IMG/VR virus record: IMGVR_UViG_2778261458_000005
Location: 1-41,650 of that record
Strand: one strand, 5' to 3'
From: a virus
Lineage: Duplodnaviria > Heunggongvirae > Uroviricota > Caudoviricetes
Length of the DNA stretch: 41,650 nt
Shown here: positions 1,532 through 40,642 of the stretch, in pieces
Layout: each line of letters begins with the position of its first letter
How positions within the stretch are numbered: the stretch's first letter is position 1
Position numbers and translations under genes: made by a program
Notes under the pieces: generated by a model
Told to the model about the DNA's origin: nothing
Databases searched by the model: none
Seen by the model: only the letters and a program-made list of their open reading frames with translations

Positions 1532-2436
1532 GGATTCACCTCCTGCGGTGGTTCTGGTAGCGGCATCCAGTGAGTTACGTCATCCAAGATATTTCCTGAT
1601 AAATACGTGAAAGCTCTATATTTTTTGTAATCAATTGGATTTACAACCCAGTTCCAATATGCGGCCACGATTTCACCTTGACTAAATGCCAGTAACATTT
1701 TGGTGTCTTCCGGCATTCGCTCACTACAGCTTATCCAACCATCCGGAGTTACCGGAACTTGCGGAATGGCTGTCTGCTCTCGAACGTCATTAGGCGCTAT
1801 AGGTTCTGCTGCCAACTGACTGGCATATTTGTTAATGGTAACGATAAGCTCTTGCTCAGCCTCATCCAGACAATCACCGATACCTCGCCTGTCACCGTCA
1901 AAATCATCGAAATCGGCACGAATCTTGGCAACCTTCTGGATTGCGGACAACACCTCACTAGGAATTACCGGATAGTTGGTTGACGTTTCCGCGATTTCCC
2001 GAAAATTACTGGTTGACGAATTCTTGTTTTCCCGAAAGTTTCCGGACTGAAGCATAGCGGCACGGCAGGAGTTCCAGCCAGCTGTTCGCCCAAGAGCGTA
2101 AACTTCAGATGGCTCAAGATAATCAATGTCATGCCCGTCCTCATCGTCGTTCTCAGGTAATGCAGCAGGTACTACCGGTACTGGCGGAGCGGCGTAGACT
2201 TCAATAATCCCATTATCAATAGGCCATTCTCCATCCTTGAGATAGTCACTTGTGCCGTCAACTTGCTGTTCAGCAATGTGGAATGCACCAACTGGCTCTG
2301 CCTCAAGCGAGGCCAGTGCAATTCGTGCCAGTTCCCTAAGATTTTCGCTATATGGTGAAGTATTATCACGATTGATTATGTGATTAGCTGTATCTATGAG
2401 AACTTGCTTTTGTTCTTCTCTGTTCATAGTGGTCAT
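1528..2436 (-). CDS. Hypothetical phage protein with C-terminal DUF551-like region
   Basis: Start taken at internal ATG 2436 (GAGAG RBS, adjacent to upstream stop); C-terminal W...WMPLP motif resembles DUF551. Confidence 0.55.
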   Translation of the reverse strand: MTTMNREEQKQVLIDTANHIINRDNTSPYSENLRELARIALASLEAEPVGAFHIAEQQVDGTSDYLKDGEWPIDNGIIEVYAAPPVPVVPAALPENDDEDGHDIDYLEPSEVYALGRTAGWNSCRAAMLQSGNFRENKNSSTSNFREIAETSTNYPVIPSEVLSAIQKVAKIRADFDDFDGDRRGIGDCLDEAEQELIVTINKYASQLAAEPIAPNDVREQTAIPQVPVTPDGWISCSERMPEDTKMLLAFSQGEIVAAYWNWVVNPIDYKKYRAFTYLSGNILDDVTHWMPLPEPPQEVNP

Positions 2437-2437
2437 A

Positions 2438-3070
2438 TCACTCTCCTTTGATGCGAATGCCAGCGGCGCGTGGCACATTAACTTCCACGATGCGCACAGT
2501 TGGTTTGTACATCTCAATCGCTGTCAGCCAGTCAGCGCCGGTCATATGCTTTTCTGCATCGCCATTAGTCCATTGAACCGGCACACCAATAGCTTTCATC
2601 GCAATTTCTATTTCCCCGGCAATGGCGCTTTTCCCGCAACCAGTAAAACCAGAGACAACGACAAGAACTTCGCCTTTGGCTGGTTTTATTTCCCGTGCTT
2701 CCAGTTCAGCAATACGCTTACTCCCATCCGAGATAACACCTTCGTAATATTCACGCTGCTCGTTGAGTTTTGATTTTGCTTCCTCAAGCTCAACACGCAG
2801 TTTCCCTACCGTTAGCGCAATATCCTCGTTATCCTGATCGCGGCGTTTTATGTATTGCTGGTTTCTTTCCCGTTCATCCAGCAGCGCCAGCACGGTTTCT
2901 GGTCCGGTCAGAAATTTGAAGGCGTTGAGCGCATCAATATCCACACCGTAATCCTTAAGTTCCTGTTCAGTTAACAAATCATCATCAACTGGCAACATTA
3001 ACAGGCGTTCCATTGCTGGAATTGCACGTTCCGCCGCCTCGCGCAGTTCTTGATAGTTAATTTCGCTCAC
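2438..3070 (-). CDS. Hypothetical coiled-coil protein with a Walker-A-like motif
   Basis: GFTGCGKS fits GxxxxGK[ST]; charged helical N-half; ATGA overlap with the next gene. Confidence 0.55.
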   Translation of the reverse strand: MSEINYQELREAAERAIPAMERLLMLPVDDDLLTEQELKDYGVDIDALNAFKFLTGPETVLALLDERERNQQYIKRRDQDNEDIALTVGKLRVELEEAKSKLNEQREYYEGVISDGSKRIAELEAREIKPAKGEVLVVVSGFTGCGKSAIAGEIEIAMKAIGVPVQWTNGDAEKHMTGADWLTAIEMYKPTVRIVEVNVPRAAGIRIKGE

Positions 3071-3624
3071 TGGATGACTCCTTTACGAAGCTGTTCAGCG
3101 ATATCTTCGAGAACGCCATCAGAGAATGAGCGGTCAAAATCTCCTTCCGGCGCATTAGCCATAAAATCAGTAGAGGTAAGAATCATCTGGGCAATATCCT
3201 CGGCGTTCTTCGCAGTATCATCAATAAAACCAACTTTCCAGGCAGCCAGCATTCTGTTCGCCACAAAGTAAGCGCCCTCCTTGCGTGCTTCAGTCTTCAC
3301 TTCAGCCAAGAAAGCGTCGGTGGCTGGGGTTTCAGTAACATCATCTTCCCATTCGCTAAACTCCTCACGACAAAGGTCATTAAATTCCTTCTCAGATTGC
3401 TTAAGCGAGGTATTTTCTGCAGCCATCTTCGCGCATTTAGCCTCAAGGTTATCAATCGTGATTCCAGCAGAACGACACTCCCGCAACGCCGTTTCTAGTT
3501 TTGATTCAAGTTCACCGAACTTACGCACCAGATATTCAGCGTTTGTTTCGTTAACCTTTAAATCTCGTGGGAAGCATTTACCTTTCAGAAAACCATCCAT
3601 CTCAATTAGTGACATTAGTTTCAT
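3067..3624 (-). CDS. Hypothetical early-left protein
   Basis: ORF-track start 3642 is GTG; preferred ATG at 3624 overlaps the stop of a small upstream ORF (ATGA). Confidence 0.5.
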
Positions 3625-4610: not shown

Positions 4611-5505
4611 TGGCAACCTCCAGTTTCGCTTTGCATTCTATGTAAATGGCTTGTACTTTCTGCTGCAATTTCATTCCAGATGTCAGGCGATATGCTTCTG
4701 CAAAATTTCGCTTCAAATCATCCATGTTTTCAGCCTGAGCCATTTCATCACAAAGAAGTTGTGCTTTTTCCATAATTTCCTGCTGTCGTTTCCGTTCATC
4801 TTCGCGGATATCTTCCTCTGATTTGTGCGGCATAACTGGTTCAGTCCACACACCTTCTTCTTCGTTTAGTACGTGAATAGCACTATCAAGACGTGATGCC
4901 TTAGGCCAATACTTGCTTGCACGCTTTACGACCGTCTTTCGCGCCATCTCATTCCAGTGATTTACCCATGGTCCTTTATCGCTGAATGCTGCCTTGCTTG
5001 TTTTCCTTACAGCCTCAATTTCAGCCAGACTCATCTCTTCCGTTAGATAATCACCTGCTGGCGTCTTAACTGTGCAGTAAACGCCAACAATATCACCACG
5101 ATCACCGAAGGCGTTGTATTTATGGGTTGGTGCTTTATCAAGCCCGTTTGACTCATAGGTATCGTTAGCATGAACAAGTTTTGCCTGACCCCATGAGATA
5201 ACACCAGACTCCATTGCAATATGGAGCAATCCCATATAACTGATATCAAGGTACACCATGCCGTCGCGCGGAACCAGATAAGCCAGTTTGCTAGCCGGGT
5301 TTAAGGTGATACCGATCGCCGCAACATTGATGATGGCGTTCTGTGCGCTGGTTGGATTTGCCAGTGCTGTTTTAGCCAGGTAATCATTTTTCTGGAAATA
5401 CTGAATTGCAAACTGGCTTTCCTTAGCCCATGTCACCGTCTGTTCAGTCAATGCTCCGCAGAATAACTGCTCTTGCTGTTTAACGAATTCAACGATATTG
5501 CTCAT
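4594..5505 (-). CDS. recT: RecT-family single-strand annealing recombinase
   Basis: 303 aa; conserved RecT core (NPTSAQNAIINVAAIGITLNP...); GGAGAAG RBS. Confidence 0.85.
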   Translation of the reverse strand: MSNIVEFVKQQEQLFCGALTEQTVTWAKESQFAIQYFQKNDYLAKTALANPTSAQNAIINVAAIGITLNPASKLAYLVPRDGMVYLDISYMGLLHIAMESGVISWGQAKLVHANDTYESNGLDKAPTHKYNAFGDRGDIVGVYCTVKTPAGDYLTEEMSLAEIEAVRKTSKAAFSDKGPWVNHWNEMARKTVVKRASKYWPKASRLDSAIHVLNEEEGVWTEPVMPHKSEEDIREDERKRQQEIMEKAQLLCDEMAQAENMDDLKRNFAEAYRLTSGMKLQQKVQAIYIECKAKLEVASEQTV

Positions 5506-5813
5506 GCAGCTTCTCCATAAATATGTCTGCGTTTGAATATTGCGAAGGCATATTCAGCCTTAACTCTTTCGGTTATTGCATCCCAGAACCATTCAGCGGC
5601 TTTTTCCTGATAGTTACAGTCATCACCTTCCAGCCAGTCGATAGCGTCCTTAGTGTGTTCATCTGGTTTATATGAGCGAAGCATTTCGCTTATTGGGTCG
5701 CAACGTTTGCAGAGGCGATCAACTTCACTGTTGATTCGTTCGTAATCATCATCGGTAAAACTTGCGATTATTTGCGATATTTCACGCTTATCATTCAGAG
5801 TCAGAATCATCAT
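5502..5813 (-). CDS. Hypothetical protein upstream of RecT
   Basis: ATG with AGGAGA RBS; ATGA-type coupling to recT. Confidence 0.5.
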   Translation of the reverse strand: MMILTLNDKREISQIIASFTDDDYERINSEVDRLCKRCDPISEMLRSYKPDEHTKDAIDWLEGDDCNYQEKAAEWFWDAITERVKAEYAFAIFKRRHIYGEAA

Positions 5814-15202: not shown

Positions 15203-15277
15203 GGGTCAGTCGTATAAAGGTCATTACGGAAGGCTGTTAACCTTCTTATCGTGGTTCGAGTCCACGCTGTCCCGCCA
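15203..15277 (+). tRNA. Phage tRNA, atypical; anticodon GUU (Asn) if the fold is correct
   Basis: Manual fold: T-arm CGTGG-TTCGAGT-CCACG, anticodon stem GAAGG/CCTTC with loop CTGTTAA, 3' GCCA; one acceptor mismatch and a compressed D-arm. Confidence 0.45.
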
Positions 15278-15282
15278 AATAT

Positions 15283-15358
15283 GCTGGTTTAGCTCCAATG
15301 GTAGAGCGGTCGCCTTGTAAGCGAATGGGTAGCGGTTCAAGTCCGTTAACCAGCACCA
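15283..15358 (+). tRNA. Phage tRNA, anticodon UGU (Thr) by manual fold
   Basis: Perfect acceptor stem GCTGGTT/AACCAGC, D-arm GCTC-CAATGGTA-GAGC, anticodon loop CTTGTAA, T-arm AGCGG-TTCAAGT-CCGTT, 3' ACCA. Confidence 0.7.
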
Positions 15359-16848: not shown

Positions 16849-17192
16849 TAGCGATAATTTTACTCATCATCCTTCACATCTGGCTCTGTAGACAGGGTGG
16901 TGAACACTTCTGGAGTGAATCCAGATTAAACATCTCATTGCTGATGCTTGATATTGAGCATTTGGCGCGCGGTAAGGGGCTGCGTTGAGATAAGAGCCAG
17001 TCATTACAAATACCAGGATTTAGCCTCGCATTCGCGGGGCTTTTTTACATCTGCAGTAAACCGCGCATCGCAGCGCGTAACAATCCCGAGTCTTTCAGAA
17101 AGCTGAGCCTGAGAACTGCCGTATATGGTGGCGACCATCTCGGGGCGGCTTTTCTGTGCGAACAGGCTCACTTTCTAAAAGGTAAAGACGCT

Positions 17193-17711
17193 ATGAATCA
17201 TCAATTGGCTAATCTCGATTTTCGGGACATGGTGGTTGTTTCTGGTGATCGCGTGATCACAACCTCCCGCAAGGTAGCAGCTTACTTCGACAAGCAGCAT
17301 CACCACATCATTCAGAAAATCGAAAAGCTAGACTGTTCGGATGAATTTCTAACCAGCAACTTTTCGCGGGTTACCTATGAACACAAGGGTAATCAGTATG
17401 TTGAATATGAAATTTCCAAAGACGGTGCGATGTACATCATCATGTCGTTTACCGGCAAAAAAGCTGCCGCCATCAAAGAGGCGTTTATCAAAGCATTTAA
17501 TTGGATGCGTGACAGGCTGATGGAGATGGCTCACTCATACCAAAGAGAGCACAACGAGTTAATGCTGGAGTTCATGAAGGAAAAGGATGTTGCCAGTATG
17601 TCAGGACGCTTGCTGAACCGCTGGGGCAGGATCAAAAAACCGCAACTCATAGCAAGAATCGAAAGGCTTGAGCAGCAGGCGCAAATATCGATCCCCGGAC
17701 TGCCAAAGTGA
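17193..17711 (+). CDS. Rha-family phage regulatory protein
   Basis: N-terminal region (VVVSGDRVITTSRKVAAYFDKQHHHIIQKIEKL) typical of Rha-domain proteins. Confidence 0.75.
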   Translation: MNHQLANLDFRDMVVVSGDRVITTSRKVAAYFDKQHHHIIQKIEKLDCSDEFLTSNFSRVTYEHKGNQYVEYEISKDGAMYIIMSFTGKKAAAIKEAFIKAFNWMRDRLMEMAHSYQREHNELMLEFMKEKDVASMSGRLLNRWGRIKKPQLIARIERLEQQAQISIPGLPK

Positions 17712-18063
17712 CCATTCCAAAGCCCATCTACTGGTGGGCTTGATAATGAAACCGTGATTTACATCCCCACAATCCGGGTATGTAAAAGATAGTTCAGGCG
17801 AGAACAGATTTAACTAAATCTGTGCACCGCCAGTTACAGCAGTACAGCGAAACAACCCAAGCCAGTAAGTGGGGAAATAACACTGGCAGCCACTGAAAGA
17901 TGAACCTCCAGCCTTATGGCAAAAAAGATTCTTTGTGGTGGCGGACTGATGGAAAGACATCGGTTATTGCAGAGGCCATTCAATGAGTGGTCTCGACAAT
18001 GGCTTATACCATACACGGGATAACTTAACTGATATCCCTTTTAACGGATAAACGGAGCCAACA

Positions 18064-18306: not shown

Positions 18307-18341
18307 TGCTCAACCTGAAATAACAAATAAGTGAGATGAAT

Positions 18342-18830
18342 ATGGCAGCACCAAAGGGCAACCGATTTTGGGAGGCCCGCAGTAGTCATGGGCGAAACCC
18401 TAAATTCGAATCGCCTGAGGCGCTGTGGGCTGCTTGTTGTGAATACTTCGAGTGGGTGGAAGCTAACCCGCTATGGGAGATGAAGGCGTTCTCGTATCAG
18501 GGTGAAGTGATACAAGAGCCTATCGCCAAGATGCGAGCGATGACCATTACCGGCCTCACTCTGTTCATTGATGTGACGCTTGAAACATGGCGCACATATC
18601 GCCTGAGAGAAGATTTATCTGAAGTCGTTACGCGAGCAGAACAGGTCATCTACGATCAGAAATTCTCTGGCGCAGCCGCTGACCTTCTCAACGCTAACAT
18701 CATCGCCCGTGATTTGGGCCTCAAAGAGCAGTCGCAAGTTGAAGACGTGACACCTGATAAGGGAGATCGCGATAAGCGACGCTCTCGTATCAAGGAGCTA
18801 TTCAACCGTGGAACTGGACGCGATTCTTGA
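18342..18830 (+). CDS. Terminase small subunit (P22 gp3 type)
   Basis: [38 protein letters not shown] matches P22 gp3 as I recall it; start at second ATG gives 162 aa. Confidence 0.85.
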
Positions 18831-20310
18831 TAACCTGAGCGACGAAGAGCAAATCGAGTTGCTCGAGCTACTCGAAGAAGAAGAGAACTACCGGAACACA
18901 CACCTGCTATATGAATTTACGCCATACAGCAAACAGCGTGAGTTCATCGACGCCGGGCATGACTATCCAGAGCGATGTTTTATGGCTGGCAACCAGCTTG
19001 GTAAGTCATTTACTGGTGCTGCTGAAGTCGCGTTTCACCTTACCGGGCGTTATCCGGGCACAAAAGGCTATCCTGCTGATGGTAAATATGGCGGTGAGTG
19101 GAAAGGTAAGCGTTTCTATGAGCCTGTTGTCTTCTGGATTGGTGGCGAGACAAATGAGACGGTAACCAAAACGACTCAACGCATCCTGTGCGGTCGTATC
19201 GAAGAGAATGATGAGCCTGGCTACGGTTCCATACCGAAAGAAGACATCATTAGCTGGAAGAAGTCTCCTTTCTTTCCGAACCTTGTTGATCATCTTCTGG
19301 TTAAGCATCACACGGCTGATGGCGTTGAAGATGGCATTTCAATCTGCTACTTCAAACCATACTCGCAAGGCCGTGCTCGCTGGCAGGGTGACACAATCCA
19401 CGGCGTGTGGTTTGACGAAGAGCCACCATACAGCATTTATGGCGAAGGGCTTACCCGTACCAACAAATACGGGCAATTCTCAATTCTGACGTTTACCCCG
19501 CTGATGGGGATGTCTGACGTTGTTACCAAGTTCCTGAAGAATCCCAGCAAGTCGCAGAAAGTGGTCAACATGACCATCTATGACGCTGAGCACTACACCG
19601 ACGAGCAGAAAGAGCAAATCATCGCATCCTATCCTGAGCATGAGAGAGAGGCGCGTGCTCGCGGTATTCCTACGATGGGTAGTGGTCGAATCTTCCAGAT
19701 ACCGGAAGAGACGATTAAGTGTCAGCCGTTCGAGTGTCCTGATCACTTCTACGTAATTGGCGGGATGGATTTCGGATGGGATCACCCACAGGCGCAGGTT
19801 CAGCTTTGGTGGGATAAGGACGCAGACACAATCTACGTTTCACGCGTGTGGAAGGCGAAAGAAAAAACAGCTGTTCAGGCATGGGGGGCCGTTAAATCAT
19901 GGGCGCATAAAGTGCCAACCGCATGGCCTCATGACGGAAACCAGCACGAGAAGGGCGGCGGCGAGCAGCTCAAAGGGCAGTATGCAGACGCTGGATTTAT
20001 GATGTTACAGGAGCATGCGACATGGCCTGATGGCGGTAATGCTGTTGAGCCTGGAATCACTGAATTGCGCGACATGATGCTTGATGGTCGCTTCAAAGTA
20101 TTCAACACCTGTGAGCCATTCTTTGAGGAGTTCCGCCTCTATCACCGTGATGAAAACGGGAAGATCGTCAAGCTTAACGACGACGTTCTCTCAGCCGTTC
20201 GCTATGCATACATGATGCGCCGCTTCGCCAAAATGATGCGCGACATCAAAAAACCAAAAGAGAAAAAGATACCAGCCCCAATCAGGCCCATCGCACGGTC
20301 AACAAGATAG
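18808..20310 (+). CDS. Terminase large subunit (P22 gp2 type)
   Basis: About 500 aa; ATPase and nuclease regions; GTG start with AAGGAG RBS; overlaps the small-terminase gene. Confidence 0.9.
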
Positions 20311-20319
20311 ATACTGTTG

Positions 20320-20820
20320 TTACGGCTTGAGAAATTCAGAGGCAGCGGAATTCAGAGCGTTAATAAATGCTACCTTATGCTTGTATGCATCTAATGCTGT
20401 AGCGAATCCGCTTTTTGTGTATTTCTTGCCTTCTACCACAAATTGCCACATGTAGTTATTTGTGTCCTTGCGATAGGAAACTCCTTTGTATCCAGTTGAA
20501 TTGTCGCAATCCATGCCACGGTTTAGTCCGTTCAACTGCTTATTGGCATCTCTAAGATTACAGATGCGGTTATCAGCACGGTTTCCGTTTATGTGATCTA
20601 CTGCTTCGGGCCAGTAACCATAGTAGTGCGCAAAACAAATTCTGTGCACGTAGTACAGTTTTTTACCAAGCCTTACATCAAGGTATCCGTTTCCATGCTG
20701 GCACCCAACGGGCTTGCCGTTAAGGTCTGTCCTCCTTGTGCGATTAGCCGCGTACAAAATTCCGGTTTCAGCATCGTATGTGAAATTTTTCCTTATATCT
20801 TCTATAGATGGATGGCTCAC
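20320..20820 (-). CDS. HNH homing endonuclease with AP2-like DNA-binding domain
   Basis: HNH motif VDHINGNRADNRICNLR; AP2-like YKGVSYRKDTNNYMWQ; GTG start with AGGAG RBS; opposite strand and more AT-rich than neighbours. Confidence 0.85.
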   Translation of the reverse strand: MSHPSIEDIRKNFTYDAETGILYAANRTRRTDLNGKPVGCQHGNGYLDVRLGKKLYYVHRICFAHYYGYWPEAVDHINGNRADNRICNLRDANKQLNGLNRGMDCDNSTGYKGVSYRKDTNNYMWQFVVEGKKYTKSGFATALDAYKHKVAFINALNSAASEFLKP

Positions 20821-20870
20821 AATAGAATCTCCTGTTGAAGTTGTCCCATTGATTTTATCACGGTAAAGTT

Positions 20871-23039
20871 ATGACTGACAACGCAGAGCGATTAAATAAG
20901 ATACTGCAAGCATTCGATGTTGATTGGATGTCTTCCGACGAGGCGAGAACAGAAGCTTCTAACGATTTATACTTCAGTCGCATAAGCCAATGGGATGACT
21001 GGCTATCAAACTACACTACCCTGCAATATCGCGGACAATTCGATGTTGTTCGCCCGGTGGTCAGGAAACTGGTCGCAGAGATGCGCCGGAACCCTATCGA
21101 CGTTCTATTCAGACCAAAAGACGGCGCTAATCCTGATGCTGCCGATGTGTTGATGGGAATGTATCGTACTGATATGCGCCATAACACGGCAAAAATTGCC
21201 GTTAACGTTGGCGTTCGTGAGCAGATAGAGTCAGGCGTTGGTGCATGGCGTCTGGTCACGCAGTACGAAGACAACGACCCAACAAGCAACAATCAGGTAA
21301 TCCGACGCCTGCCAATCCATGAAGCCTGCTCACACGTCATATGGGACGCCAACAGCAAGCAGATGGATAAGAGCGACGCTAAGCACTGCACGGTGATTAA
21401 CGCCTTGTCACGCAATGGCTGGAAAGAGTTCGCAGAGGATTACGGTATTGATCCTGACACGCTGCCATCTTTCCAGAATCCAAACGATACATGGCTGTTT
21501 CCGTGGGTATCGAATGATGTCGTCTACGTCGCTGAGTATTACGAGGTCGAAGAGAAGAAAGAGAAAGTCTTCATCTACCGCGACCCGCTGACAGGTGAGC
21601 CGGTCAGCTATTACCAGCAGGATATCAAAGACGTCATCGACGACCTGGCTAATCGTGGATTCATTAAGGTAGCAGAGCGCAAGGTGAAGCGTCGGCGTGT
21701 GTATAAGTCGATCATCACCTGCACGCAGATACTGAAAGACCGCGAGAAGATAGCCGGAGAGCATATTCCAATCGTTCCAGTGTATGGAGAATGGTCATTC
21801 GCTGGTGACAAGGAGTGCTACGAAGGAGTGGTAAGGCTGACGAAAGACGGCCAACGCCTTCGTAACATGATCATGTCATTCAACGCCGATATTGTTGCTC
21901 GTTCACCGAAGAAGAAACCGACCTTCTTCCCTGAGCAAATCGAAGGCTACGAATACATGTACGGTGGAAATGATGACTATCCGTACTATCTGCAGAACAG
22001 GACCGATGAAAACGGTAACGACCTGCCGATTGGTCCAATCTCCTACATGGAAAACCCTGAAGTGCCGCAAGCCAACGCTTACATGCTTGAGGCAGCCACC
22101 AACGCAGTGAAAGAGGTGGCTAGTCTTGGCGTTGATGCGCAGGCGGCAAATGGTCAGGTCGCTTTCGATACCGTCAATCAACTGAACATGCGGGCAGACC
22201 TTGAGACATACGTGTTTCAGGATAACCTGGCTACCGCAATGCGACGTGATGGCGAGATTTATGCCTCAATGGTCAACGATATTTATGACGTTCCTCGTCA
22301 TGTAACGCTGACACTTGAAGATGGAAGCGAGAAAGACGTTCAACTCTACGCGCAAGTTGTCGATTACCAGTCCGGTAATGTGGTCACACTCAACGACATT
22401 CGCGGTCGCTATGAGTGCTATACAGACGTTGGGCCATCCTTCCAGAGCATGAAGGAACAGAACCGCGCAGAGATTCAGGAGTTGCTCACCAAGGTTCCGC
22501 AAGGTACTCCAGAGTTCCAGATGCTGATGCTGCAATACTTCACGCTGCTTGACGGTAAAGGCGTCGAGATGATGCGAGAGTACGCGAACAAGCAACTGGT
22601 GATGATGGGGCTTAAGAAACCAGAAACACCTGAAGAGATGGAGATGGTACAGCAGGCTCAACAGCAGCCGCAGCAGCCATCAGCAGAGCAAATTCAGGCG
22701 CAGGGTATCCTTCTGCAAGGTCAGGCTGAATTGCTCAAGGCAGAGAACCAACAGGCGCAGATTCAGGTTGAAGCTGCCAAGGTTGAAGCCCAAAACCAAC
22801 TCAACGCCGCGAAGATTGCAGAAATCTTCAACAATATGGACCTCGACAAGCAGGCAGAACTGCGTGAGTACCTCAAGCTCGTAGGTCAATTCCAGCAACA
22901 GCGCAGCAAAGATGCTCGTGCTAACGCTGAGCTGCTTCTTAAAGATGCAGACCAGACTCATTCACAACGCATGGATTTCGCGAATCTTATGCGCCAAGTT
23001 CAAATCCCCTCCGGCGGAGTAGCCGAGACACCTCAATAA
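20871..23039 (+). CDS. Portal protein (P22 gp1 type)
   Basis: 722 aa; N-terminal third closely matches P22 gp1 as I recall it ([18 protein letters not shown]...[18 protein letters not shown]). Confidence 0.95.
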
Positions 23040-23052
23040 GAGAGAGTTAATC

Positions 23053-23964
23053 ATGAACCCAACCACCGACATTCAGACTTCTGAAGAATTAACCCTGCCC
23101 GGCAATCATGCAGCGGCATCTGCTGATGGCTTAGTTGTCGATAATGCCAACGACAACGCAGGTCAGGAAGAAGGCTTCGAGATTGTCCTGAAAGACGATG
23201 AGAAACCAAAACAAGACCCGGCAACTAATGCTGAATTTGCCCGTCGCCGCATCGAACGCAAACGCCAGCGTGAGCTTGAGCAGCAGATGGAAGCGGTTAA
23301 GCGTGGAGAGTTGCCGGAGCACCTGCGGGTGAACCCTGAGTTACCAAAACAACCAGACCCTAACGATTATCTTTCCGAAGATGCACTAGCTAAGTACGAC
23401 TATGACCATAGCCGCGCACTGGCTGCCTTCCAGCAGGCAAACAGTGAATGGCAGATCAAGGCTATGGACGCACGAAGCCAGGCTGTCGCCGAGCAGGGTC
23501 GCAAAACTCAGGAGTTCACCCAGCAATCAGCGCAATACGTCGAGGCAGCCCGTAAGCACTACGACGCAGCGGAAAAGCTCAATATCCCTGACTATCAGGA
23601 GAAAGAGGATGCATTCATGCAACTGGTGCCGCCAGCAGTCGGTGCCGACATCATGCGCCTCTTCCCGGAGAAATCCGCCGCTCTCATGTATCACCTTGGT
23701 GCTAATCCTGAGAAAACACGCCAGTTGCTGGCGATGGACGGGCAATCCGCGCTGATTGAACTCACTCGACTGTCAGAACGTTTAACTCTCAAGCCTCGAG
23801 CCAAACCTGTTTCAGAAGCCCCGCTACCTGATGAACCCATTCAGGGACACGCTGTTGCTGCAAATATATCTGCGATTGAAAAGCAGATGGAAGCGGCAGC
23901 AAACAAAGGGGATGTAGAGACATACCGCAAGCTCAAGGCGCAACTGAATAAAGGAATTCGATAA
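23053..23964 (+). CDS. Scaffolding protein (P22 gp8 type)
   Basis: 303 aa, same length and position as P22 gp8; charged helical composition. Confidence 0.85.
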
Positions 23965-25259
23965 TGGCATTAAATGAAGGTCAACTGGTCACGTATGCTC
24001 TGGATGAAATCATCGAAACCGTCCAGAACCTGACGCCAATGGCGTCCAAAGTGACAAAATACACCCCTCCGGCAGAATCCATGCAACGTTCAAGCAACAC
24101 CGTGTGGATGCCTGTTGAGCAGGAAGCGCCAACTCAGACTGGCTGGGATTTAACTGGCAACGCTACCGGTATTCTGGAACTGTCCGTGAAATGCAACATG
24201 GGCGATCCGGATAACGATTTCTTCGAGCTTCGTGCAGATGACCTGCGTGATGAGCGTTCTTACCGTCGCCGCATCCAGGCATCCGCCAAAAAACTGGCGA
24301 ATAACATTGAGTCAGCGATTGCCAAACAGGCAACTGAAATGGGCTCGCTTGTTGTTCACGATACCCGCGCAATTGGTCCATCTACTGGCCTGTCTGGCTG
24401 GGATTTTGTGTCTGATGCAGAGCGCCTGATGTTCTCCCGTGAGCTAAACCGCGATATGGGCATCAGTTACTTCCTGAACCCTGACGATTACCGCAAAGCA
24501 GGCCGCAACCTGGTAGATGGTGACATCTTCGGGCGCGTTCCTGAAGAAGCGTATCGCAACGGTACTATTCAGCGTCAGATTGCTGGCTTTGATGAAATTC
24601 TTCGCTCACCGAAACTTCCGGCAGTTACCAAGTCAACCGCGACTGGTGTAACTGTTTCTGGTGCGCAGAAGTTTAAGCCGCAGGCATACACCCTTGATAC
24701 CGATGGTAACAAAGAGAACGTCGACAACCGTGTTGCAACGGTGACCGTATCCTCCACCACCGGGTTTAAGCGCGGCGACAAAATCAGCTTCACTGGTGTG
24801 AAATTCCTGTCTCAGATGGCGAAGAACGTGCTGACTGATGATGCTACTTTCTCAATCACCCGTGTGATCGATGGTACTCACATCGAAATCACGCCGAAGC
24901 CGATTGCGCTGGATGACGCGTCACTGACAAAAGAAGAGAAGGCTTACGCTAACGTAAACACCTCTCTTGCTGAGAGCACTCCGGTAAACGTTCTGAACGT
25001 GGCAACAACTACCGCTAACGTGTTCTGGGCTGATGACTCAATCCGTCTGCTGTCTCAGCCGATCCCGGTAACCCATGAGCTGTTTGCTGGCATGAAAACG
25101 TCTTCCTTCAGCATTCCTGGTATTGGTGTTAACGGCATCTTCGCAACGCAGGGTGATATCAACACTCTGTCTGGTAAGTGCCGTATTGCTGTGTGGTATT
25201 CAGCATGTGCTGTACGACCAGAGGCAATTGGTGTTGGTCTGCCTAACCAGACTGCGTGA
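23964..25259 (+). CDS. Major capsid (coat) protein (P22 gp5 type)
   Basis: 431 aa versus 430 for P22 gp5; correct synteny. Confidence 0.9.
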
Positions 25260-26012: not shown

Positions 26013-27430
26013 TGCCGATTCAGCAACTTCCGCTTATGAAAGGTGTCGGCAAAGACTTCCGAAACGCCGACTATATCGACTATCTGCCAGTGAATATGCT
26101 GGCTACACCCAAAGAAATCCTCAACAGCAGCGGATATCTTCGCTCATTCCCGGGCATTGCCAAACGTTCTGATGTGAACGGCGTATCGCGCGGCGTCGAG
26201 TACAACATGGCGCAGAATGCTGTTTATCGCGTGTGTGGTGGCAAACTGTATAAGGGAGAAAGTGAGGTCGGTGATGTTGCCGGAAGTGGTCGCGTATCAA
26301 TGGCGCATGGTCGGACATCACAGGCGGTAGGCGTTAATGGTCAACTGGTCGAGTATCGTTATGATGGCACGGTTAAAACCGTCTCAAACTGGCCTACAGA
26401 CAGCGGATTCACGCAGTATGAGTTAGGCTCAGTCCGCGACATTACGCGCTTACGTGGGCGTTATGCGTGGTCAAAAGACGGCACTGATTCATGGTTTATC
26501 ACTGACCTTGAAGACGAATCGCATCCTGACCGCTACAGCGCACAATATCGTGCAGAGTCTCAGCCTGACGGCATCATCGGCATCGGAACATGGCGAGATT
26601 TCATCGTCTGCTTTGGTTCATCGACGATTGAATATTTCTCCCTGACTGGTGCAACCACCGTTGGTGCTGCTTTGTATGTCGCACAGCCATCACTGATGGT
26701 ACAGAAAGGCATTGCCGGAACTTACTGCAAAACGCCATTCGCTGATTCTTATGCGTTCATCAGCAATCCGGCAACAGGTGCGCCGTCTGTATATATCATC
26801 GGCTCCGGCCAGGTGTCACCAATCGCCAGCGCGAGCATTGAGAAAATTCTCCGCTCCTACACTGCTGATGAACTGGCTGATGGTGTGATGGAATCGCTGC
26901 GATTTGATGCTCATGAGTTGCTGATTATCCACCTTCCGCGCCATGTTCTCGTGTACGACGCATCTTCAAGCGCCAATGGTCCGCAATGGTGTGTACTGAA
27001 AACAGGCCTGTATGACGATGTGTACCGCGCTATCGACTTCATTTACGAAGGCAACCAAATAACGTGCGGCGATAAGCTTGAATCGATGACAGGGAAATTG
27101 CAGTTCGATATCAGCAGCCAGTACGACAAGCAACAGGAACATCTGCTGTTTACTCCGCTGTTCAAAGCGGATAACGCAAGAGTGTTCGACCTTGAGGTTG
27201 AATCTTCAACTGGTGTTGCGCAGTACGCCGACCGCTTGTTCCTTTCTGCAACCACTGACGGCATCAATTACGGACGTGAGCAGATGATTGAGCAGAATGA
27301 ACCTTTCGTTTACGACAAACGTGTTTTGTGGAAGCGTGTCGGGCGCATCAGGAAAAATGTCGGCTTCAAATTGCGCGTTATCACTAAGTCACCTGTCACT
27401 CTGTCAGGCTGCCAGATAAGGATTGAGTAA
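26012..27430 (+). CDS. Tail accessory protein (P22 gp10 type)
   Basis: 472 aa, same as P22 gp10; synteny. Confidence 0.85.
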
Positions 27431-34236: not shown

Positions 34237-34304
34237 AGTTGAAGCCCCAGCTGCGGGAACAGTCAGGGCTTCTGTTGTCAGTAAATTCGTGGAGAAAAAC
34301 CAAC

Positions 34305-39248: not shown

Positions 39249-40406
39249 TCACTCCACCTTTTCATCAACCCAATCCGCCCACCACTGCATCATTTCTCTG
39301 CGCTTATCGAGATACTGAGCATGGTTGTAAATTCCACGTACAGATCCGCCATTGGCATGTGCCAGTTGCACTTCAATAGCATCAGCAGGCCATTCGTGCT
39401 CGTTCATAATCGTGCTAAATTCATGCCTGAATCCGTGACCGCTTTCCAGACCTTCATAGCCGATTTGTTTGATCACAAGCAGTACCGCGTTCTCGCAGAT
39501 TGGCTTCTTCTTATCGTTGCGACCGGCAAAAACAAACTCTGACACTGGTTTAGTGATTGAGCTTAGCGTAGTGAGAAGTTCAACCACCTGGTCTGACATA
39601 GGAACCACATGAATTTTGCGTCCCTTCATCACACTGGCGTCGATGGTGATAATCCTGTTTTCAAAATCGACGTTCTTCCATTGCATGGAACGAAGCTCTT
39701 TCGTTCTTAGGACTGTGTAGCGTAAAACTTTGGTCGCAATGAGCGATACGATACTTCCTGAAAATGTTGCCAGTGCTTTATTGAATGCTGGGATCTGGTC
39801 GGCAGGTAAAAACGGGAAGTTCTTCTTGCGGTATCCCTTCATGGCGTCAGCAAGGTCAGGTGCCGGATTATATTTAGCCCTGCCGGTGACAATAGCGTAA
39901 CGGAAAACCTCGCCGCATCTTCTGCGTGCTTTGTTGGCTCGCTCCATTGCGCCGCGATCTTCAAATCTGCGGATTACTTCCAGCAGTTGCATCGGCTCAA
40001 TATCCTGAATTTCAAGGCCGCCGATGATGGGTAAAATGTCGTCATCAAACATTTTTGCAAGTTCAGTCGCATACCCTACTGACCAGACTTGCTTCTTGTG
40101 TTCGTACCATTCCTTGTAAATTGCACTAAAGGAATTGTTGTTAGACGAAGCCTTTTTCGCTTTTACCGGATCGATGCCAACCGAGATGTCTTTCCTCGCA
40201 GTCCATGCTTTATCCCTTGCATCCTGCAAAGTCATAAGCGGATATTTTCCGACAGTCAAGATTTTCTCCTTACCTTCAATCTTGTAGCGAAGCTGCCATA
40301 CCTTTTTCCCGGATACAGGGACATAAAGGTACAGGCCATTACCATCGAGTAGGCGGTATGGTTTTTCTTTTGGCTTTGCTGCTTCAATCTGCTTAACGGT
40401 GAGCAT
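39249..40406 (-). CDS. intS: Tyrosine integrase (P4/IntS type)
   Basis: Start taken at ATG 40406 (385 aa, the K-12 IntS length; ORF-track start 40442 is GTG); N-terminal arm-binding motif KPYRLLDGNGLYLYV; C-terminal catalytic HxxR...Y region. Confidence 0.9.
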   Translation of the reverse strand: MLTVKQIEAAKPKEKPYRLLDGNGLYLYVPVSGKKVWQLRYKIEGKEKILTVGKYPLMTLQDARDKAWTARKDISVGIDPVKAKKASSNNNSFSAIYKEWYEHKKQVWSVGYATELAKMFDDDILPIIGGLEIQDIEPMQLLEVIRRFEDRGAMERANKARRRCGEVFRYAIVTGRAKYNPAPDLADAMKGYRKKNFPFLPADQIPAFNKALATFSGSIVSLIATKVLRYTVLRTKELRSMQWKNVDFENRIITIDASVMKGRKIHVVPMSDQVVELLTTLSSITKPVSEFVFAGRNDKKKPICENAVLLVIKQIGYEGLESGHGFRHEFSTIMNEHEWPADAIEVQLAHANGGSVRGIYNHAQYLDKRREMMQWWADWVDEKVE

Positions 40407-40567
40407 GGGTAAAAATCCGGTGGGTAAAATTATTTTATCCACTTTTTACCCGTCATGGAGTGCGGCTGTCAACGATCTGACGCGAACCATTACGAACTGC
40501 TAATCTACGGAAGGCTTGATATTCATGGGATTTTGCGGACTGGTACGGATGGTAGAGAACTGATAAA

Positions 40568-40642
40568 TGGTGTCCCCTGCAGGAATCGAACCTGCAATTA
40601 GCCCTTAGGAGGGGCTCGTTATATCCATTTAACTAAGAGGAC
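40568..40642 (-). tRNA. argW: tRNA-Arg, anticodon CCU
   Basis: Minus strand folds as a 75-nt tRNA (GTCCTCTTAGTTAAATGG...GGTTCGATTCCTGCAGGGGACACCA), anticodon loop CCTCCTAAG; matches E. coli argW as I recall it. Confidence 0.9.

Follow-up and report, generated by a model that had tools for sequence, protein, structure and literature searches.

In the window, by which we mean the whole stretch of 41,650 nucleotides analysed here, a single open reading frame separates the large terminase gene from the portal gene and runs antisense to both. It occupies exactly positions 20320..20820 on the minus strand, encodes 166 amino acids from a GTG start with an AGGAG Shine–Dalgarno sequence 7 nt upstream, and is the sole member of its own family within the window. 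On the left it is flanked by the large terminase gene, terL (18808..20310, plus strand; Pfam Terminase_6N/6C), and on the right by a P22-type portal gene (20871..23039, plus strand; Pfam P22_portal, E=1e-160). These flanking matches, together with a Pfam HNH_3 match to the encoded protein, bear out an earlier note on this DNA that had placed an HNH endonuclease antisense between large terminase and portal. The window is a P22-like prophage. It carries a gp3-type small terminase gene (18336-18830; GP3_package), the portal gene is followed by scaffold and coat genes, and the P22-like identity is confirmed by a match to the sar antisense RNA of the P22 immI region (34237-34304, minus strand; Rfam RF00262, 84.8 bits). 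At the right end a tRNA-Arg(cct) gene (40568-40642, minus strand) adjoins a 397-aa ORF (39249-40442, minus strand) that has the size and position expected of an integrase, and the two probably mark the prophage attachment site. Two other tRNA genes, tRNA-Asn(gtt) and tRNA-Thr(tgt) (15203-15277 and 15283-15358, plus strand), sit between a Q-antiterminator-like region and the lysis genes; a related E. coli prophage, L004, is only ~86% identical to the window up to 15203, and the tRNA interval is unmatched in it. Upstream of the small terminase gene lies a Rha-family regulatory ORF (17193-17711, plus strand; Phage_pRha and ORF11CD3), and the L004 prophage, though similar elsewhere, lacks this segment, with no megablast match over window positions 17010-17830.

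The encoded protein consists of an N-terminal beta region, an HNH_3 core at residues ~56-100 (with H59, D75, H76, N78, N88 and N97 as core residues) and a predicted AP2-fold domain at ~110-163. Residues 56-98 match Pfam HNH_3 (PF13392) above its curated threshold (E=2e-13; 50.1 bits, cut-off 24.8) and residues 2-147 match PHROG_99, 'HNH endonuclease' (E=5e-50); no NCBIfam model matches the protein and there was no Rfam match in the region of the gene. The sole solved structure related to it by sequence is I-HmuI (PDB 1U3E; E=0.015), an HNH homing (nicking) endonuclease encoded by an intron in Bacillus phage SPO1. D75, H76 and N97 align with D74, H75 and N96 of I-HmuI, which are reported to be the metal ligands and general base of that enzyme (Shen et al., 2004). 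The earlier note would have given up its reading had the HNH catalytic residues been missing on alignment. All three are invariant in an alignment of 62 homologues, as are H59, N78, D83, N84, R85, N88 and N100, and the protein thus retains the elements of a beta-beta-alpha-metal core with its general-base His and metal-binding Asp/Asn. Homology assigns it to the HNH_3 / I-HmuI-like group (His-Me finger group 2), and its gene is free-standing, with neither intron nor intein.

An AP2-like DNA-binding domain had also been proposed, and this part of the claim is upheld by fold and by homologues and not by the direct Pfam AP2 profile. On this sequence alone the profile (PF00847) scores below its cut-off (13.6 versus 33.3 bits; E=0.083; residues 109-141). 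In the AlphaFold2 model, which was built on the 62-homologue alignment (pLDDT 92.7, pTM 0.81), residues 114-155 form three strands and a helix, the three-stranded antiparallel sheet packing on the C-terminal helix as in the AP2 (GCC-box-binding-domain) fold. Homologues that are ~37-44% identical pass or approach the Pfam AP2 cut-off (one of them, P0011, passes with 34.6 bits), and most members of the wider family carry both AP2 and HNH_3 according to precomputed PF00847 assignments. The C-terminal domain is accordingly modelled as AP2-type on the strength of its fold and of transitive homology, not of a direct profile match.

Annotation of P22 and of phage L confirms that terminase and portal are adjacent in P22, as the earlier note stated. 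Comparison with phage Louie, in which the site is empty, delimits what has been inserted: identity is 94-98% up to position 20298 and 98.5% from 20988, and between these points 689 bp in the window replace 123 bp. The resulting cassette (20299..20987) starts with the altered last 9 nt and stop codon of terL, continues with the HNH gene and an intergenic control region, and ends with 117 nt that replace the start of the portal gene. The net gain over empty-site relatives is 566 bp (1601 versus 1035 bp), so the description of a '~560-bp insert' holds as a net difference; the differing segment itself is larger, at 689 bp, and also replaces the 5' end of the portal gene. The AT-richness that had been pointed out is real but modest, the GC content being 42.4% in the cassette, 50.6% in terL and 50.9% in the portal gene (~50.7% for the flanking genes) and 47.2% over the entire window. 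At the left edge the last three codons of terL differ from those of empty-site relatives (ARSTR* versus ARRT*). The intergenic control region (20821..20870) is 50 bp long and nonexistent in empty-site genomes, and it holds the AGGAG Shine–Dalgarno sequence of the HNH gene (~20828-20832, minus strand) and the -10 element of a candidate promoter. At the right edge the portal patch (20871..20987, plus strand; codons 1-39) is 56% identical to Louie and ends at a conserved CAATGGGATGACTGG stretch; it differs from the Louie-type allele at nearly all synonymous sites and encodes a similar peptide. The patch and the intergenic region taken together (20821-20990) were found in only two E. coli genomes, both of which carry the HNH gene, and in no phage record, and in the collections searched the patch is strictly linked to that gene. 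Escape of the target site as the driver of this divergence was considered and rejected, because between lineages the HNH gene itself reaches a pS of 0.8-0.96 when calculated in this way; the age of the patch is simply that of the cassette.

A candidate sigma-70 promoter for the HNH gene spans 20852..20881 on the minus strand; its -35 element, TTGTCA (20881-20876), falls in portal codons 2-4 and is separated by 18 nt from an extended -10 element, TGaTAAAAT, which ends at 20852. In a consensus scan it has 10 of 12 consensus matches plus the TG, and transcription is predicted to start near 20845. The scan count is itself at chance level (two sites versus 2.3 expected in shuffles), and the weight we give to the promoter comes instead from its conservation across lineages: TTGT and TAA-AT are kept at unchanged spacing in seven of seven occupied loci, a block TCCCAT-N-AT-TTAT-CACGG is conserved in all of them, and the segment 20801-20900 is 92-98% identical to the occupied locus L014, in which the coding DNA on either side is ~74% identical. 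This pattern suggests that the candidate promoter serves the HNH gene, and the location of its -35 element inside portal codons 2-4 could account for the constant co-transfer of the portal start with that gene. The insertion removes the stop/start overlap between terL and portal, which means that the portal must initiate independently from an AU-rich spacer, and its ribosome-binding site presumably lies within 20821..20870 now that translational coupling to terL is lost. A weak terminator-like hairpin with a T-run (20274..20288, minus strand) is located 32 nt past the stop codon of the HNH gene, inside the 3' end of terL; it folds no better than shuffles (z=+0.3) and is doubtful as a terminator in the window. 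Phages of the P22/L type have a minus-strand terminator-like hairpin with a U-run in the terL 3' end even where there is no antisense gene. Such hairpins were located at 1721-1758 (minus strand) in phage L (L020) and at ~1920-1957 (minus strand) in SEN22 (L003), with z of about -2; the phage L/SEN22-type hairpin is annotated as a terminator in MW013502 and would lie just downstream of an inserted antisense gene. A minus-strand terminator is convincing in L and SEN22 but not in the window, and we do not claim one for the latter. A plus-strand hairpin with a T6 run inside the HNH gene (20642-20658) was also set aside as probably a chance occurrence, since SEN22 does not share it and the number of scan hits was at chance level.

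The earlier note suggested comparing the terminase–portal junction among P22-like relatives, and this comparison reveals a presence/absence polymorphism. In Louie, IME10, HZ41, Dewey and APC_JM3.2 the flanks are 97-98% identical to the window (94-98% across comparisons) and the span is 1035 bp against 1601 bp; Louie and IME10 have no gap between the terL stop codon and the portal ATG (TAAATG). The two genes also abut, and the HNH gene is absent, in P22, L and more than 100 further records. Occupied and empty alleles thus occur at one fixed site in near-identical genomes, as expected of an optional gene, and the presence of the gene in all relatives, which would have spoken against the proposed insertion, was not what we found. 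Among 114 phage records with the portal type of the window, Salmonella phage SEN22 is the only carrier of a close homologue. A match to the terL 3' end was found in 203 of 5426 complete E. coli genomes, two of which have the insert (99.4% identity), and IMG/VR holds eight further near-identical prophage copies, all colinear with the window. A scan of GTDB species representatives with a back-translated pattern revealed no relative of the gene.

The position of the gene raises the possibility that its product assists terminase and portal in packaging, as accessory HNH proteins do in HK97-like cos phages. It adjoins both terL and the portal gene, and terminase-adjacent HNH proteins are reportedly needed for packaging in some cos phages (Kala et al., 2014, PNAS). 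A Skunavirus study points the same way (PMC12967558). We regard such a role as highly improbable in this prophage. The gene is absent from the viable, plaque-forming and near-identical phages Louie, Dewey, IME10 and HZ41 as well as from P22 and L, it is antisense to the packaging operon, and its product is of the HNH_3 plus AP2 homing type and not of the small PF01844 type; in addition, the small terminase is of the P22 gp3 type (GP3_package) and a pac site is annotated in phage L. Proteins of the HK97 gp74 type would be expected to be both conserved and required in all close relatives and to be co-transcribed with terminase and portal in a cos-type packaging module; this gene is missing from more than 100 records and runs antisense. 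The preference of the earlier note for a selfish homing endonuclease over a packaging co-factor is therefore well founded, given a dispensable antisense gene of a different HNH family next to a gp3-type small terminase.

Fidelity to the site extends well beyond close relatives of the window. A large protein search returned nine clusters that are 66-99% identical to the protein, and all clade members that were looked up (P0002, P0003, P0004 and P0006, at loci L014-L019, and SEN22; 66-87% amino acid identity) are encoded antisense between TerL and P22_portal. The clade spans phages with Sf6-type and with gp3-type small terminases, and homologues at the same terL/portal site in such diverged hosts are accompanied by signs of horizontal spread. 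The clearest of these comes from a comparison of two occupied loci, L015 and L016, over locus coordinates 2801-3500 versus the flanks. These two encode the same protein (P0003), and the HNH gene and ~200 nt of the portal gene are 100% identical; portal identity then decays to 93-96% and further to 70-80%, terL is 55-60% identical, and one small terminase is Sf6-type and the other gp3-type. This gradient is what would be expected of recent horizontal transfer with co-conversion, and it matches the published observation of nuclease genes at the boundaries of genetic exchange (Barth et al., 2023; PMC10448857). The length of the portal patch varies as well, from 117 nt in the window to 51 nt in SEN22. 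Both this variation and the gradient would fit co-conversion, although ordinary recombination could also yield them.

Two further observations run counter to homing. Occupancy is ~1-2%, unlike that of a rapidly sweeping element, and the divergence of the HNH gene between occupied lineages (~71-74% nucleotide identity) is similar to that of the flanks (~74-76%), so that part of the distribution could reflect vertical descent with loss. P22-like phages are also highly mosaic, and the cassette could spread by ordinary homologous recombination between conserved flanks, with no need of nuclease activity. An explanation built on these points is that the gene is a passive moron, or a decaying or retooled gene, that is moved by ordinary recombination with no site-specific cutting and that may encode an AP2-type binder or have no role at all; low occupancy, flank-like divergence and the pervasive mosaicism of the P22-like group (PMC11990801) all favour it. 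We nevertheless think it quite unlikely. Across the clade pN is 0.07-0.23 and pS is above 0.8, that is, synonymous sites are saturated, and all of the ORFs are full length, which points to strong purifying selection on a gene that is dispensable. Moreover, all catalytic and metal-binding residues are invariant, site and orientation are strictly conserved, and an identical cassette is found in phages with unrelated terminases, within an identity gradient centred on the HNH gene.

The terL/portal junction is one of three sites for HNH genes in the same operon, and the three assort independently among genomes that are at least 97% identical. In the window the terL/portal site alone is occupied; Louie is occupied between scaffold and coat, and empty at terL/portal and at the head-completion genes gp4/gp10; the L004 prophage is occupied at all three. 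At window position 23964 the scaffold stop abuts the coat start, and this second site is occupied by an antisense HNH_3 gene at 23766-24281 (minus strand) in L004 and at 5058-5585 (minus strand) in the Louie locus (L005). The HNH genes at scaffold/coat and at terL/portal are paralogues with 41% identity. The third site lies inside or beside gp4/gp10; it is occupied at 26783-27576 in L004, where the HNH gene splits the 'packaged DNA stabilization protein' annotation, and is empty in Louie and in the window (~26103-26132). The L004 protein encoded there is only marginally similar to that of the window (E=0.07).

A rival explanation is that the nuclease is kept mainly for the benefit of the prophage, being expressed in the lysogen from its own sigma-70 promoter and cutting superinfecting or co-resident P22-like relatives at terL/portal, as a means of marker exclusion or competition between phages; the gene would then not persist purely through super-Mendelian inheritance. 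The HNH gene has a candidate promoter of its own that opposes the late operon and is conserved in all occupied loci, the clade has persisted for a long time under purifying selection despite its low occupancy, and all close copies of the gene reside in prophages. PADLOC returned a single match, to a generic 'homing endonuclease' model, but this match is weak (E=1e-4), and the gene has neither partner genes nor the context of a defence system, its neighbours being terL and portal. On the present sequence data such a function is molecularly indistinguishable from homing, and as the main reason for the retention of the gene we consider it unlikely.

We propose instead that this free-standing gene probably encodes a homing endonuclease of the HNH_3 / I-HmuI-like type with an AP2-type C-terminal domain. 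From comparative genomics we infer homing, and with it nuclease activity, a target at the terminase/portal junction and the function of the promoter. The gene would have a promoter of its own and be transcribed in the direction opposite to the late operon. In a cell that an occupied genome, whether prophage or co-infecting phage, shares with a P22-like relative whose terL/portal junction is empty, the enzyme would introduce a nick or break into the empty allele, at the junction or close to it. Recombinational repair templated by the occupied allele would then copy in the HNH gene along with, by co-conversion, its control region and a varying stretch of the 5' end of portal. Immunity of the occupied allele is proposed to follow from the insertion, which separates the terL stop from the portal start and substitutes portal codons 1-39. 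Comparison of four empty with five occupied alleles revealed no diagnostic target motif beyond the split junction and codons 2-4.

A fuller version of the homing model, possible if doubtful, is that the mobile unit is a self-contained antisense cassette and more than a nuclease gene. With the -35 element built into portal codons 2-4, each transfer would rewrite the portal start and uncouple translation of the portal from that of terL. Should the promoter be active in lysogens, incoming empty-site relatives would be cut by an enzyme that the prophage produces all the time, and would either be converted to the occupied state or be excluded; convergent late transcription would then shut the gene off during virion assembly. 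If true, this would describe a homing element adapted to the biology of a temperate phage while embedded in an essential operon.

For annotation, the comparison settles the HNH gene as an optional selfish insert outside the P22-type packaging machinery. It also documents a clade of putative homing endonucleases that is tied to the terL/portal junction across diverged P22-like phages; three or more HNH sites, this one included, assort independently in the operon. As P22 genetics are excellent and empty-site relatives (Louie, IME10 and P22) are at hand, the P22 assembly gene cluster offers a tractable temperate-phage system for the study of homing, co-conversion and mosaicism bounded by homing endonuclease genes, and a characterised enzyme would add a new AP2-guided specificity to the toolbox of nicking and cleaving HNH enzymes. 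The current understanding of homing endonucleases is unchanged by these findings. In a non-systematic look at the literature we found no description of the anatomy of the cassette (the portal 5' patch and the conserved antisense control region), of the breadth of the clade across P22-like phages or of three HNH sites assorting independently in one operon.

The gene is not new in kind, as both the HNH-AP2 family and a homologue at the terL/portal site of SEN22 have been reported. The SEN22 authors interpreted the gene between terminase and portal as a homing endonuclease insertion (PMC5261728). That gene, SEN22_3 (NC_028696, YP_009191456), likewise encodes 166 amino acids, is 68.7% identical to the protein of the window, occupies precisely this position and orientation between the terL and portal genes in a P22-like phage and has the same conserved upstream control block. 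SEN22 belongs to a different lineage, with ~71% nucleotide identity to the window and saturated synonymous sites; set against phage L it has the same cassette structure as the window with a shorter portal patch, and its left junction keeps the ancestral TAATGG right beside the stop of the HNH gene, whereas the window has an altered terL tail. The combination of HNH and AP2 has been described as a homing endonuclease family (Magnani et al., 2004, cited in PMC10448857) and is also treated as a homing endonuclease architecture under His-Me finger group 2 (PMC5714182). Members of this family, including HNH homing endonucleases of T5-like phages and the 'IPA-HNH' genes of ICP1, share an N-terminal HNH and a C-terminal AP2 domain with the protein studied here, and its next-nearest phage homologues (36-44% identity) are encoded by genes annotated as homing endonucleases in T5-like Salmonella and E. 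coli phages. Unlike the wider family, the members of the present clade keep to a single site in temperate phages of the P22 type, and the AP2 domain in the window, in contrast to that of many members, is too diverged to reach the Pfam threshold alone. I-HmuI differs in that it lies inside a group I intron and has a helix-turn-helix in its C-terminal DNA-binding region, whereas the gene described here is free-standing and its product carries an AP2 domain. As with nuclease genes at other exchange boundaries (PMC10448857), the gene sits at a sharp break in similarity between related phages. It also resembles the free-standing Seg and Mob genes of the T4 type, which are intergenic and optional and show co-conversion of their flanks. 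Seg proteins, however, are GIY-YIG enzymes and not HNH enzymes, and the T4-type systems belong to virulent phages and are usually co-oriented with their neighbours, whereas the gene in the window belongs to a temperate phage and runs antisense within a late operon.
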